Origin: Anaerovoracaceae bacterium
GTDB taxonomy: Bacteria > Bacillota > Clostridia > Peptostreptococcales > Anaerovoracaceae
DNA length: 52,348 nt
Direction: 5' to 3'
Assembly: GCA_963590215.1 (NCBI GenBank)
Contig: CAVAON010000003.1
Coordinates: forward strand, 1 to 52,348
Part shown: in pieces, positions 23,186-38,038 of the stretch
Position numbering within the stretch: the first letter of the stretch is position 1
How the letters are laid out: the number at the start of each line of letters is the position of its first letter
Position numbers and translations under genes: made by a program
The notes under the pieces: model-generated
Seen by the model: the letters and a program-made list of their open reading frames with translations, nothing else
Told to the model about the DNA's origin: nothing
The model's database searches: none

Positions 23186-23300
23186 AATCTGTTTCAGGGC
23201 GAGGTGCAATTCCTCACTGGCGGTAAAGTCCGCGAGCCTTCGGGTTGAACCGGTGAAACTCCGGTACCAACGGTTATAGTCCGGATGGAAGAAACTAGAG
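23186..23300 (+). promoter_or_regulatory. FMN riboswitch (RFN element)
   Basis: CAGGGCGAGGTGCAATTCCTCACTGGCGGTAAAGTCCGCGAGCC...CCGGTGAAACTCCGGTACCAACGGTTATAGTCCGGATGGAAGAAAC matches the conserved RFN core. Confidence 0.9.
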
Positions 23301-35452: not shown

Positions 35453-36127
35453 ATGGGTGTTTCATTCAGACTTCTGAAAAAACTGAACTATTTTTCCCTT
35501 GATATAGATTTTACAATGGAAAACGAACTCCTCGTAATAGAAGGAGCCTCCGGTGCGGGGAAAACAACGATACTCAACTGTCTGGCAGGCATAGTGACTC
35601 CCGATGAGGGAGTAATCAATGTTGACGGCAGGATTCTTTTCAGTCATGACGACAAGATAAATGTTCCGGCAGAAAAACGCAATATCGGCTATCTTTTTCA
35701 GAACTATGCTCTTTTTCCGCATATGACCGTAAAACAGAATGTGCTTTACGGACTCAAAAACAAGAAATCATACAGAGCGAGAACCGAAAAAAAAGAGCTG
35801 CTTGAGTATGCAGGGTATATGATGGAGACACTGGGGATCTCACATCTTGCAGATAAAAACGCAACAGCAATATCAGGCGGAGAAAAGCAGCGTGTGGCTC
35901 TGGCAAGGGCAATGGTGACAAAGCCGTCGCTGCTGCTTTTGGACGAACCGTTTTCTGCACTTGATGAAAATACTAAACAAAAAATATATGATGAGTTTAT
36001 GGCATTCAGAGAAACTCTCAAAATTCCGACAATACTCATAACTCACAACCATCGTGAAACGGAGCTTTTTGCGGATATAAATATAACGCTGAAGGAAGGC
36101 AAGGTGATAGCAAGTGAAAGAAGTTGA
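35453..36127 (+). CDS. modC: ABC transporter ATP-binding protein (ModC-like, no TOBE domain)
   Basis: Walker A GASGAGKTT, signature ISGGEKQR, Walker B LLLLDEP. Gene order follows modAB. Confidence 0.75.
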   Translation: MGVSFRLLKKLNYFSLDIDFTMENELLVIEGASGAGKTTILNCLAGIVTPDEGVINVDGRILFSHDDKINVPAEKRNIGYLFQNYALFPHMTVKQNVLYGLKNKKSYRARTEKKELLEYAGYMMETLGISHLADKNATAISGGEKQRVALARAMVTKPSLLLLDEPFSALDENTKQKIYDEFMAFRETLKIPTILITHNHRETELFADINITLKEGKVIASERS

Positions 36128-37133
36128 TGTTAAGAATGCGGTGGGAACCGTACTGGCTCACGATCTGACGCAGATAATTCCTGGTGAATACAAGGGGGCG
36201 AAATTCAAAAAAGGTCATGTAATATCAGAAGATGATATCCCTTTGCTCCTTTCAATGGGCAAAAAACATCTGTTTGTTCTCGAAAAGGATGATGACGATG
36301 TTCATGAAAACGAGGCTGCATACAGGATAGCATCTAAAGCCGCAGGCAGGGGCATTGATCTGTCGAAACCCTCAGAAGGCAAAATTGAGCTTCGTGCAGC
36401 CACAGACGGACTTCTCAAGATAGACAGGGAAAGGCTTTTCAGGCTGGTATCTCAGGATGAGATAATGTTTGCCACGACGCACGAAAATATAGTGGTGAGA
36501 AAAGGTGACAAACTGGCAGGCACTAGAATAATACCTCTTTTTGTGGCGGAGTCTGTGATGCAGACGGCGGAGCAGACTTTAGAGTCGGGACCTCTGGTGG
36601 AGATAGTGCCTCTAAAGAATATGAAAGTTGGGGTTGTGACTACCGGAAGCGAGATATACAACGGGATTATAGAGGATGCTTTCGGGCCTGTGCTTGTAAG
36701 GAAATTCGGAGAGCTGGGCAGTAGCGTCGAAAAACAGCTCTTTGCAGACGATGATGATGAGATGATCGCAGACTGCATCAGGCAGCTTGTGGACGAGGGT
36801 ATGGATATTATCGGTATTACAGGCGGGATGTCTGTGGATCCTGATGACAGGACCCCTTCGGGTATCAGACTTGCGGGTGGAGAGGTTGTAAGCTATGGCG
36901 CTCCGGTACTTCCCGGTGCCATGTTTATGCTGTCATATATAGGCGATATTCCTGTGGTTGGACTGCCGGGAGGTGTTATGTACAGTCGCACCAGCGTATT
37001 CGATCTGATCGTGCCAAGACTTCTGGCAGGAGAGAGAGTTACCAAGGATGATATAAACAGGCTGGCTCATGGCGGACTGTGCCTTGGCTGCGAAACCTGT
37101 ACATATCCTGCGTGCGGATTCGGGAAAGCATAG
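36114..37133 (+). CDS. molybdopterin-binding (MoeA-N/MoCF-binding-like) protein
   Basis: GTG start overlapping modC. MoeA-like N-terminus (VDVKNAVGTVLAHDL) and a MoCF-BD-like core (VGVVTTGSE...ITGGMSVDPDD). C-terminal CLGCETCTYPAC (CX2CX2CX4C) motif. Confidence 0.6.
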   Translation: MKEVDVKNAVGTVLAHDLTQIIPGEYKGAKFKKGHVISEDDIPLLLSMGKKHLFVLEKDDDDVHENEAAYRIASKAAGRGIDLSKPSEGKIELRAATDGLLKIDRERLFRLVSQDEIMFATTHENIVVRKGDKLAGTRIIPLFVAESVMQTAEQTLESGPLVEIVPLKNMKVGVVTTGSEIYNGIIEDAFGPVLVRKFGELGSSVEKQLFADDDDEMIADCIRQLVDEGMDIIGITGGMSVDPDDRTPSGIRLAGGEVVSYGAPVLPGAMFMLSYIGDIPVVGLPGGVMYSRTSVFDLIVPRLLAGERVTKDDINRLAHGGLCLGCETCTYPACGFGKA

Positions 37134-37185
37134 ATTCCCGATTGTGAAGTTCTGCAGGTTTTGCATGGAAACAATAATTTTCACC

Positions 37186-37214
37186 TTGAAAAACAGAAGT
37201 CTATGTGCTAATAT
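37186..37214 (+). promoter_or_regulatory. strong sigma-A promoter of a small RNA
   Basis: TTGAAA (37186-37191), 17-nt spacer, TGc-TAATAT extended -10 (37209-37214). Confidence 0.6.
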
Positions 37215-37220
37215 AGACAT

Positions 37221-37310
37221 ATGAAAAGACGAGGCTTTGCGGCTTCGCCGAAAGGGTTTTAGCTACTTAGTAGCTTTACCGCTCTTGGTATCAGCAGGAG
37301 CGGCTTTTTT
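37221..37310 (+). ncRNA. candidate ~90-nt sRNA antisense to the 3' end of a 32-codon ORF
   Basis: Bounded by the promoter above and the terminator at 37279-37310. Internal hairpins at 37230-37247 and 37261-37275. No family recognised. Confidence 0.45.
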
Positions 37311-37361
37311 AATCTTAGAGATTGTTATCCTAATGCGCTTCAGTGTAATAGTAATTCTCAT
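37263..37361 (-). CDS. 32-aa highly basic small protein (unannotated, below ORF-track cutoff)
   Basis: Own translation: MRITITLKRIRITISKIKKAAPADTKSGKATK. AAAGGAGG RBS with 8-nt spacing to the ATG (37361). Two upstream TGGTATAAT boxes. Confidence 0.45.
   Translation of the reverse strand: MRITITLKRIRITISKIKKAAPADTKSGKATK
37279..37310 (+). terminator. intrinsic terminator of the candidate sRNA
   Basis: CCGCTCTTG / CAGGAGCGG 9-bp stem (one G-U), 7-nt loop, then C-TTTTTT. Confidence 0.75.
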
Positions 37362-37443
37362 CAATATCGCCTCCTTTCATTAGATCCCAATACCGGGTCT
37401 TTTGAAAATCGGCTCAGCCGCTCAGGTCTCGTCTTCAGCAACT

Positions 37444-37452
37444 ATTATACCA
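37444..37452 (-). promoter_or_regulatory. extended -10 box TGGTATAAT (proximal promoter of the small ORF)
   Basis: Minus-strand TGGTATAAT. The -35 is poor. The predicted TSS (about 37436) falls at the start of the AAGACGAG repeat arm. Confidence 0.4.
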
Positions 37453-37521
37453 CGATGATAATCTCAAAGGGTATCTGTTACACATCGGCTCTGTCCTATC
37501 GGCCAATCTCCGTGTGTAGAC

Positions 37522-37550
37522 ATTATACCAGAAGAACAATTTCCAAACAA
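37522..37550 (-). promoter_or_regulatory. distal promoter on the minus strand
   Basis: Minus strand: TTGTTT (37550-37545), 17-nt spacer, TGG-TATAAT (37527-37522). Confidence 0.45.
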
Positions 37551-37700
37551 GAGTTCGCAAACATTTTAGTTAAAGGATTGCTACTGCTCATATCCGGGTA
37601 AAAATATACTTTCTGAAATCGCACCGCAAAGGGATTTTGTCTGACAAACATAGAGGTCTCAGATTTTCGTAAATTTATTTGCTCAAATTACAAAATATAC

Positions 37701-37729
37701 TTGTCAGAGGATATTTTTTGTGTAATAAT
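37701..37729 (+). promoter_or_regulatory. sigma-A promoter of the pur operon leader
   Basis: TTGTCA (37701-37706), 17-nt spacer, TGt-AATAAT extended -10 (37724-37729). Confidence 0.55.
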
Positions 37730-37757
37730 TAAAACATCAGTTGAATAAGTTTTGTTT

Positions 37758-37824
37758 ACTAATATATGTTCTGTATGATGGCTGGAACGTCTCTACCACG
37801 CGCCGAAAAAAAGTGACTATTAGT
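37758..37824 (+). promoter_or_regulatory. purine riboswitch aptamer (guanine-type core, atypical P3/L2)
   Basis: P1 is ACTAATA (37758-37764) / TATTAGT (37818-37824). It aligns position by position to the xpt aptamer: J1/2 UA.., L2 ..AUGG, J2/3 GUCUCUAC, L3 CCGAAAA, J3/1 AC with C at the specificity position (37817). Only 3 of 6 P3 pairs are Watson-Crick. Confidence 0.6.
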
Positions 37825-37883
37825 TGATATGCGCAATTGCAGCCTTGTTTCAAAGGCTCGCTTTGTGTTTATTTTGTATTAGT

Positions 37884-37912: not shown

Positions 37913-37918
37913 ACTATA

Positions 37919-37990
37919 CCTGTCATAACTGACGATAAGCGGGTTACCGCAGGGGAGTGACAGGCGAAATACATGTCGATCGTCTGGGCA
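37919..37990 (+). promoter_or_regulatory. ZTP riboswitch (pfl motif)
   Basis: P1 is CCTGTCA (37919-37925) / TGACAGG (37958-37964). J1/2 is ACTGACG, P2 is CGG-GTTA-CCG, followed by conserved AGGGGAG. The 3' subdomain ends CGTCTGGGCA (37981-37990). The pseudoknot GACG/CGTC is a compensated version of the consensus GGCG/CGCC. Confidence 0.8.
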
Positions 37991-38038
37991 GACAACTATC
38001 TCATATATTAGGGATACTTGTCTGTCCTGTTGTTTTTT
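37986..38038 (+). terminator. ZTP-controlled terminator
   Basis: GGGCAGACAA (37986-37995) pairs with TTGTCTGTCC (38018-38027), followed by TGTTGTTTTTT. The 5' arm overlaps the conserved UGGGCA of the aptamer. Confidence 0.75.

Follow-up and report, generated by a model that had tools for sequence, protein, structure and literature searches.

The question raised by this locus is what occupies the 600-bp spacer that lies, in a 52,348-nt stretch of an Anaerovoracaceae bacterium genome (contig CAVAON010000003.1, positions 1 to 52,348; hereafter the window), between a gene with a MoCF_biosynth domain (36114-37133, plus strand) on one side and the purine and ZTP (5-aminoimidazole-4-carboxamide riboside 5'-triphosphate) riboswitches before purE on the other. 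An initial annotation, made from the bases alone, had proposed that the spacer holds a convergent, 3'-overlapping pair of a small RNA and a short cationic open reading frame (ORF), laid out like a type I toxin-antitoxin (TA) locus. Comparison across related copies supports this layout: the promoters, terminator, hairpins, ribosome-binding site with its ATG, and ORF are kept in about 20 diverged copies. The comparison also demonstrates the module as such, its conservation, the selection on its coding frame and the RNA structures on both strands. In our best explanation, to which we assign a probability of roughly 55%, the spacer is a two-transcript, type-I-TA-like and possibly SOS-linked module in which an antisense RNA would control a small protein; the peptide would be of a new kind, and its toxicity is putative. 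The parts of the module in the window are the following.

37545-37556, minus strand: LexA-type box GAACTCTTGTTT (GAACnnnnGTTT form), overlapping the -35 element TTGTTT (37550-37545) of the distal promoter P1
37522-37530, minus strand: extended -10 element TGG-TATAAT of P1, TGGTATAAT, with the -35 TTGTTT 17 nt upstream
37453-37521, minus strand: 69-nt leader segment separating the two TGGTATAAT repeats, confined to the double-promoter variant of the module
37444-37452, minus strand: extended -10 element TGG-TATAAT of the proximal promoter P2, TGGTATAAT, 7 nt ahead of the first base of the closing helix
37220-37437, minus strand: predicted small-ORF mRNA from P2, about 218 nt (from the fold and the family alignment A2)
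37399-37436, minus strand: 5' strand of the clamp, consisting of the closing helix GAAGACGAG (37436-37428) and the conserved motif GCGGCTGAGCCGATTTTCAAAAG (37421-37399)
37370-37377, minus strand: Shine-Dalgarno (SD) sequence AAAGGAGG, 8 nt upstream of the ATG
37263-37361, minus strand: 32-codon ORF MRITITLKRIRITISKIKKAAPADTKSGKATK, with a protein-constrained core of codons 1-19 (37361-37305)
37225-37250, minus strand: 3' strand of the clamp, CGGCGAAGCCGCAAAGCCTCGTCTTT; the same bases on the plus strand form hairpin 1 of the antisense RNA
37186-37214, plus strand: promoter of the antisense RNA, TTGAAA, 17 nt, TGc-TAATAT, with the TG at -15/-14 (consensus scan)
37221-37310, plus strand: predicted antisense RNA of about 90 nt, with hairpin 1 (37230-37247), hairpin 2 (37261-37275), the terminator stem (37279-37303) and a T-run (37305-37310)

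All of the individual features that had been proposed were found where they had been placed. On the plus strand, a consensus scan recovered the promoter TTGAAA-17-TAATAT and a terminator made of a 9-bp stem (37279-37303) and C-T6. Folding of the plus-strand RNA (94 nt; minimum free energy [MFE] -34 kcal/mol, z = -2.8) reproduced the terminator and the hairpins at 37230-37247, with its G.U pair, and 37261-37275. This RNA (about 37221-37310) is, as had been stated, perfectly complementary to the last 16 codons of the ORF, stop included, and to the 3' untranslated region (UTR). The minus strand has the ORF at 37361..37263, AAAGGAGG 8 nt before its ATG and two identical TGGTATAAT boxes (37530-37522 and 37452-37444), which define a double-promoter subtype with two expected mRNA isoforms. 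The two boxes had been seen correctly; the comparison adds that the distal one is the regular promoter of the family, carrying the LexA-type box, and that P1 is homologous to the single promoter of the copies L086a/b, L084a and L085b (copies are given here by their labels). P2 lies 78 nt downstream of P1, and its position relative to the RNA 5' end matches that of the -10 element of all other family members. The double-promoter arrangement is also found in copy b of L084 (1852-1935), which rules out the 69-nt segment between the boxes as an insertion specific to the window. The suggestion of a leaderless 13-codon micro-ORF at 37221 (MKRRGFAASPKGF) has to be abandoned, as its ATG reads AAG in both orthologous loci, L001 and L026.

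When species-representative genomes are searched with the neighbouring protein, the window falls among Anaerovoracaceae-like gut Clostridia that are related to Lentihominibacter and Brotomerdimonas. The element adjoins the MoCF-type gene only in the two closest genomes, L001 and L026. In these, the stretch conserved with the window runs from the plus-strand -35 to past the minus-strand 5'UTR, and the remaining spacer is unalignable. Judged by this comparison, the promoter-to-promoter block is the sole conserved part of the spacer in relatives, and the features of the module are more than chance. An empty-site comparison through the MoCF-type gene defined no insertion borders, the other relatives carrying different genes downstream of it.

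Beyond these orthologous loci, a search with the 32-aa window peptide, padded with X to 42 aa, returned 21 protein clusters, mostly of 30-36 aa and typically of the form MRITITLKRIRITISSIKKAAPAxTKSGKA.... Some clusters are 69-70 aa long, with an insert of 37-38 residues after residue 16. Only 13 clusters reached E<1e-3 when a profile was run against 1.84 billion cluster representatives, and the family is therefore narrow. An ORF-independent DNA-motif scan with GCGGCTGMGCYGAWWTTCAAAAG added further copies, including one locus with and without a 111-nt insert, one recombinant and one 3'-truncated copy. In total, about 20 distinct copies were found, in differing gene neighbourhoods and often in tandem; the window itself has one copy in 52 kb. 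Searches of Pfam, NCBIfam, PHROGs and PADLOC at E up to 10 recovered nothing for either the short or the long form of the peptide. Rfam searches of both strands of the window (37100-37760) and of L066 (3850-4250), at the gathering score and at E up to 10, gave only chance-level matches (E>0.1). An exact-product look-up of the window peptide gave no record, and its sequence was not found in the searchable literature. On these search results, the spacer module is one copy of a small, narrow, previously undescribed and unannotated family in gut Clostridia with Anaerovoracaceae-like genomes.

The full copies have a common anatomy. On the ORF strand, they share a promoter, a 5'UTR motif, AAAGGAGG with the ATG, a 19-codon core and base-pairing between the two ends of the RNA. 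The promoter (-35 TTGTT[CT], 17 nt with TG, -10 TAnnAT) is followed by the RNA 5' end, which opens the closing helix, by the motif GCGGCUGAGC..UUUCAAAAG and by a small hairpin; AAAGGAGG, a spacing of 7-9 nt, the ATG and the ORF come next. Past the ORF are a hairpin preceded by an A-run, a variable hairpin, a GNRA-capped hairpin and the 3' strand of the closing helix. All members retain the SD, in the form A[AG]GGAG[GT], and the 5'UTR motif GCGGCTGAGCCGATTTTCAAAAG has a single occurrence in the window, where none is expected by chance. The predicted transcript of the opposite strand has three hairpins, with its terminator inside the ORF. Its promoter lies just outside the closing helix and includes a TG-extended -10 TAnnAT in every full copy. 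A -35 element TTGnnn is present 17 nt upstream in 11 of the 13 members (L076 has the extended -10 only, and L026 is degenerate). The design of this antisense promoter is retained although its sequence differs between copies.

Which frame is under coding selection, that of the short ORF or its mirror image, can be judged from the substitution pattern. In the copies from the DNA search, the start codon is ATG everywhere except in the decaying L026 (TTG), and at least the first 19 codons are kept. ORF length in the family ranges from 23 to 36 aa, or 69-70 aa with the insert. The conserved core of codons 1-19 reads MRITITLKRIRITISxIKK. A competing proposal is that the real product is a hydrophobic peptide from the mirror frame on the plus strand (37237-37383: ...LPLLVSAGAAFLILEIVILMRFSVIVILINIASFH), i.e., a classical membrane toxin. 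Nearly every copy has this frame open, and its translation resembles a transmembrane helix. Family-wide, its ratio of non-synonymous to synonymous change (pN/pS) of 0.33 over the first 20 codons equals that of the ORF frame (0.31) and gives no discrimination, which is the mirror effect expected because the two frames share wobble positions. Among the six copies closest to the window, with 105 synonymous and 31 non-synonymous pairwise changes, the ORF frame has a ratio of 0.09 and the mirror frame one of 0.32. The former is marked by conservative replacements (mean BLOSUM62 +0.30) and the latter by radical ones (-0.69), with L<->R flips inside the supposed helix. A conserved SD and start codon are found for the ORF frame only; the mirror frame has neither and contains an intrinsic terminator midway. 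On these grounds (substitution pattern, missing start and SD, internal terminator), the mirror ORF was rejected, and we regard its chance of being the real product as close to negligible.

Other observations concern how far the constraint on the ORF extends. Three-base periodicity is restricted to codons 1-19, where mean pairwise differences per column are 11.2, 12.5 and 31.2 for positions 1, 2 and 3, whereas the 5'UTR has none (14.1, 12.8 and 16.5). Across the family, Arg11 is encoded by AGG, CGG, CGT, CGA or AGA, or is replaced by Lys (AAG). These substitution patterns show purifying selection acting on the ORF frame, a check that the initial annotation had named; in the window subfamily, pN/pS is 0.09. 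The claim of a 32-codon ORF is upheld as regards coding and is narrowed as regards extent, only the first 19 codons being protein-constrained. In the second copy of L053, a rebuilt terminator (GACCGCCACGG..CCGGTAGCGGTC) results in the tail residues KKTATAEPR. In P0021, P0031 and L076 (from 7756), changes in the length of the A-run before the terminator hairpin result in the frameshifted tails KKPLLL... and KKPNLR. Since the frame of the tail shifts with A-run length, the tail beyond codon 19 ('KKAAPAxTKSG...') is, on this sequence evidence, no more than translated hairpin sequence (antisense terminator and hairpin 2) and is not constrained as protein.

The RNA structures are conserved on each strand separately. 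The window mRNA, from the P2 start to the end of the clamp (219 nt), has an MFE of -70.3 kcal/mol (z = -4.36), and in this fold its first ~38 nt are paired with its last ~26 nt, forming the clamp. In all 13 aligned members, the duplex between the 5' 40 nt and the 3' 45 nt is stable (-28 to -50 kcal/mol, z -3.2 to -8.6). The pairs that make up the closing helix vary by member (GAAGACGAG/CUCGUCUUU, CCAAGAGAA/UUCUCUUGG, GCCGGGAGA/UCUCCUGGC and GUCAAGGAAA/UUUCCUUGAC). Alignment A2 has 94% of its cells paired, compared with 31-41% when the partners are slid. None of 500 shuffles reached its covariation score. The clamp contains 31 G.U/U.G pairs and 2 A.C/C.A pairs, an excess that argues for selection on the ORF-strand RNA and not on a DNA palindrome. 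Conversely, 11 of the 13 members have a U.G pair in the plus-strand terminator that corresponds to mismatched C.A on the ORF strand. Together, the asymmetry of the clamp and the terminator wobble point to a strand-specific structural constraint on both strands. Hairpin 2 and the terminator have been rebuilt with other sequences in L061, L078 and the second copy of L053.

These patterns bear on another explanation, namely that the element is a dispersed repeat resembling a miniature inverted-repeat transposable element, in which the long terminal inverted repeats with inward promoters are what is conserved and the ORF and RNAs are by-products. Such a repeat would account for the multiple copies in many contexts, for the position between operon genes, for a contig break at one copy (L001), and for left and right ends that are inverted repeats of ~35-55 bp including promoter-like sequences. 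It would not account for the strong synonymous-over-nonsynonymous bias in one frame with conserved SD and ATG, nor for the G.U excess that singles out one RNA strand and the terminator wobble that is specific to the other. Moreover, target-site duplications were not recognised at the borders of copies, and phage and plasmid records have no match. We consider this explanation improbable.

The genomic habits of the family are diverse. One copy lies between an M50-like peptidase and a response-regulator/kinase pair, and a second, diverged copy between that pair and an ATP-binding cassette (ABC) transporter. Others are found between BlaI-like and BlaR1-like genes, before a Cas3-like helicase and beside AAA_14/DUF4143 ATPases, and some are convergent with gltD-like or ribbon-helix-helix (RHH) genes. 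In L053-L060 (3905-4275 and 5983-6231), the module is found on both sides of a response-regulator/histidine-kinase pair that lies upstream of an ABC/FtsX transporter; both copies point the same way, and the second is diverged, with a rebuilt terminator hairpin and a 28-aa ORF. Tandem arrays occur in L086 (2 copies in 806 nt), L085 (at least 4 in 2.1 kb), L084 (2), L053 (2) and also L001, where the start of a second copy is located 1.2 kb away, at the contig end. L084, L085 and L086 are among the contigs that encode the peptides most similar to that of the window. The contigs of L001 and L002 break at or beside the element, as expected of a repeated sequence. At L074 (388-645), the left half of the copy at the M50 locus is joined to the right half of another copy, a hybrid that, by its sequence, indicates recombination between copies. 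At one and the same locus in L053 (4001-4210) and L073, an in-frame 111-nt insert within the ORF is present or absent (69 aa vs 35 aa). This insert has its own hairpins, with the ORF open throughout, and a variant of the insert is found in L075, P0011 and P0013. Two copies are decaying. L026 has lost its 5'UTR, starts with TTG and has a plus-strand promoter degraded to TCGAAA..TGGTAC, and L075 (576-737) has kept the promoter, 5'UTR and ORF, with its 3' part, antisense gene included, replaced by another terminator. By analogy, tandem arrays, scattered contexts, and recombinant and decaying copies are the behaviour of chromosomal type I TA loci in the style of ldr, ibs/sib and zor/orz.

The same neighbourhoods could be taken to mean that the minus-strand RNA is a cis-acting leader (an upstream ORF or attenuator) for the next gene, with the conserved peptide acting in ribosome arrest or sensing. 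Several copies have a co-oriented gene that starts 70-280 nt past the ORF and encodes a response regulator, an ABC transporter, a BlaR1-like M56 peptidase or a Cas3-like helicase. In addition, no strong terminator was seen on the ORF strand, and it is the peptide sequence and not its length alone that is conserved, with an R/K-x-R/K triplet in most copies. However, the downstream genes are mutually unrelated, and copies are stacked behind one another in tandem arrays. The neighbour that follows is a convergent gene in the window and in L001, L026, L066 and L077, which leaves nothing downstream to regulate. A leader function appears highly improbable on this distribution.

For the type-I-TA-like module, a link to the SOS response is suggested by its promoter. 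In 7 of the 13 members, a perfect GAAC-N4-GTTC lies over the ORF-strand -35, at a constant distance from the ATG and with a variable N4. GAAC-N4-GTTC is the LexA operator of Bacillus subtilis, the operator for Firmicutes being defined as GAAC-N4-GTT[CT], and the form GAAC....GTTT is present at lexA, recA and ruvC of Clostridioides difficile (PMC4234289). The window box GAACTCTTGTTT is the only GAACNNNNGTTY in 52 kb, and family promoters account for nearly all GAAC-N4-GTTC boxes in the ~480 kb of loci fetched. At the level of the motif, the module is possibly under SOS control. The exceptions in the fetched loci share the promoter design. One precedes a gene for a ~130-aa membrane protein (GAACGCTTGTTC-17-TAGAAT; L074, 2053-2130), and others lie ~100 nt upstream of SprT/YgjP-like genes (L081, 2581-2592; L080, 4092-4103). 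The genes for the membrane protein and the SprT/YgjP-like proteins are candidates for the SOS regulon in these uncultured Clostridia.

Transcription, antisense action, SOS control and toxicity are what we infer, and the mechanism would be as follows. The minus-strand promoter, in the family usually with a GAAC-N4-GTT[CT] box over its -35, would produce a compact, clamped mRNA of ~220 nt. Its strong SD and ATG would be exposed and would direct synthesis of a peptide of ~30 aa, of which the first 19 residues are a predicted cationic amphipathic beta hairpin. From the plus strand, a constitutive-looking sigma-70-type promoter would produce an RNA of ~90 nt with three hairpins, ending at the terminator inside the ORF. 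This RNA would be fully complementary to the 3' ~90 nt of the mRNA, including the 3' strand of the clamp, and its pairing may evict the mRNA 5' end from the clamp, a displacement expected because both RNAs start with nearly identical sequence. The evicted 5' end would be exposed to 5'-end-dependent decay, the long duplex would be a substrate for ribonuclease (RNase) III, and ribosomes may be blocked within the last 16 codons. If mRNA synthesis rose, plausibly after LexA cleavage, the antisense RNA would be out-titrated, in the manner described for tisB/istR-1 after induction (PMC8309996), and the peptide would be made.

Among the described systems, par of plasmid pAD1 (Fst/RNA I-RNA II) is very similar in size, with an mRNA of ~210 nt, a peptide of ~33 aa and an antisense RNA of ~65-90 nt. 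It also shares with the module convergent transcription towards a common terminator region. Fst is hydrophobic, however, and the par RNAs interact via 5' direct repeats, whereas in the module the antisense 5' end would mimic the mRNA 5' end and compete for the mRNA 3' end. The hok/sok system is similar in that long-distance pairing between the 5' and 3' ends compacts the mRNA. The hok fold-back keeps the mRNA untranslatable until 3' trimming. In the module, the SD is not sequestered in silico, and the antisense RNA would target the clamp itself.

The txpA/RatA and bsrG/SR4 systems of B. subtilis likewise have convergent promoters and an antisense RNA of ~90-220 nt that is complementary to the 3' part of the small-ORF mRNA, and in both cases control is expected through duplex formation and RNase III (PMC6563280). 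TxpA and BsrG are hydrophobic membrane peptides, whereas the module peptide has no transmembrane segment and no sequence similarity to them. The module further differs in having the antisense terminator inside the ORF and an mRNA with a long 5'-3' clamp. The SOS-induced loci tisB/istR-1, dinQ/agrB and symE/symR of Escherichia coli can be likened to the module because of the LexA operator on the toxin promoter and the constitutive antisense RNA that is out-titrated (PMC8309996, PMC6563280); SymE, moreover, is a type I toxin that is no membrane peptide. These loci are proteobacterial, have a CTGT-N8-ACAG box and use antisense RNAs that act on the 5' region. The module, by comparison, has a putative box of the Firmicute type, GAAC-N4-GTT[CT], degenerate in the copies closest to the window, and a 3' overlap. 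The pairs CD2517.1-RCd8 and CD0956.2-RCd10 of C. difficile share with the family the taxonomic order, convergent overlapping genes, a lysine-rich tail and multiple copies (PMC6563280). Their toxins are 50-53 aa long with a hydrophobic N-terminal helix and are located in prophages or beside CRISPR arrays, whereas the peptide of the module lacks such a helix, does not resemble them and has no phage matches.

As these comparisons indicate, the peptide differs from the known toxins of type I loci. Hydropathy analysis found no transmembrane segment in it, in line with the initial annotation, which had noted the lack of a hydrophobic helix. The peptide has an isoelectric point (pI) of 11.8, a charge of +10/-1, a grand average of hydropathy of -0.36 and a longest uncharged run of 5 residues. 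The amphipathic beta hairpin suggested earlier is partly borne out: given the family alignment, AlphaFold2 places one strand at residues 2-7 and another at 10-15, with a weak mean predicted local distance difference test (pLDDT) score of 62. For the long form, it adds a low-confidence helix (pLDDT 57).

Several points weigh against the type-I-TA-like explanation. Every transcript on which it depends is predicted from sequence. The hydrophobic helix of nearly all type I toxins is absent from the peptide, whose best 15-residue Kyte-Doolittle value is 0.74, compared with at least 2.4 for Fst, TisB, TxpA and BsrG, and searches of Pfam, NCBIfam, PHROGs and PADLOC (E up to 10) showed no similarity to a described toxin family. 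In silico, neither the 3' nor the 5' end consistently sequesters the SD (z about 0), and masking of the antisense target leaves its predicted accessibility unreduced; hence the translational lock that is customary in type I toxin mRNAs is not observed. The ORF of L075 is retained without the antisense gene, which is awkward for an essential antitoxin unless the ORF there, with its 111-nt insert, is inactive. As for SOS control, the five copies closest to the window carry AAACGCTTGTTT and not GAAC..., and the proximal promoter P2 has no box, which together make such control uncertain for the window subfamily. Plasmid and phage collections have no match to the peptide or to the DNA, and viral contigs scanned for the DNA motif gave none. 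Finally, the family members are mutually related, and the covariation counts are not independent events.

Some of these observations would suit a genuine antisense-controlled gene for a small protein that is no toxin, for example an effector induced by SOS or other stress that binds DNA, RNA or protein, with the antisense RNA setting a threshold of expression. The structural and coding evidence fits such a gene equally well. The peptide is soluble-looking and highly basic (pI 11.8, +10/-1), without a transmembrane segment; the SD is open, and L075 has kept its ORF without an antisense gene. The 'RITITL' strands presumably resemble the DNA-reading beta strand of RHH proteins, but no Pfam family, RHH included, matches the peptide at E up to 10. 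Furthermore, tandem arrays, many unrelated contexts, and recombinant and decaying copies typify selfish or addictive modules and not a housekeeping regulator. We regard the non-toxin effector as unlikely, yet as a serious candidate.

The surroundings of the module include other RNA elements. Ahead of purE, the two riboswitches are arranged in tandem, the purine riboswitch at 37740-37839 (46.8 bits) being followed by a ZMP/ZTP riboswitch (for the mono- or triphosphate) at 37915-37996 (60.7 bits), and a flavin mononucleotide riboswitch is located elsewhere in the window (23186-23300). On the other side, the MoCF-type gene has no terminator of its own ahead of the antisense promoter (37134-37185), and for this reason its transcript is probably also ended by the antisense terminator at 37279-37303.

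What, then, would the type-I-TA-like module mean for these bacteria? As a tentative proposal, which we find attractive and yet doubtful, the family may be the founding member of a new class of type I TA systems and the first to be SOS-wired in Firmicutes. On this proposal, ~19 residues folded into a cationic amphipathic beta hairpin would act as the toxin on nucleic acids, ribosomes or the membrane surface, and the antitoxin RNA would pry open the protective 5'-3' clamp of the toxin mRNA. The family combines the full RNA architecture and genomic habits of type I systems with a conserved, strongly basic peptide that is predicted to form a beta hairpin. If the peptide is toxic, it would extend the kinds of peptide that can serve as type I toxins, add an SOS-linked example for Gram-positive anaerobes and provide a compact model for how an antisense RNA may act by opening the 5'-3' clamp of its target mRNA. 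Should it be non-toxic, it would still be a conserved and newly recognised small protein of Clostridia that are abundant in the human gut; one variant of it occurs on 235 contigs, and it is at present unannotated or listed merely as 'hypothetical'.

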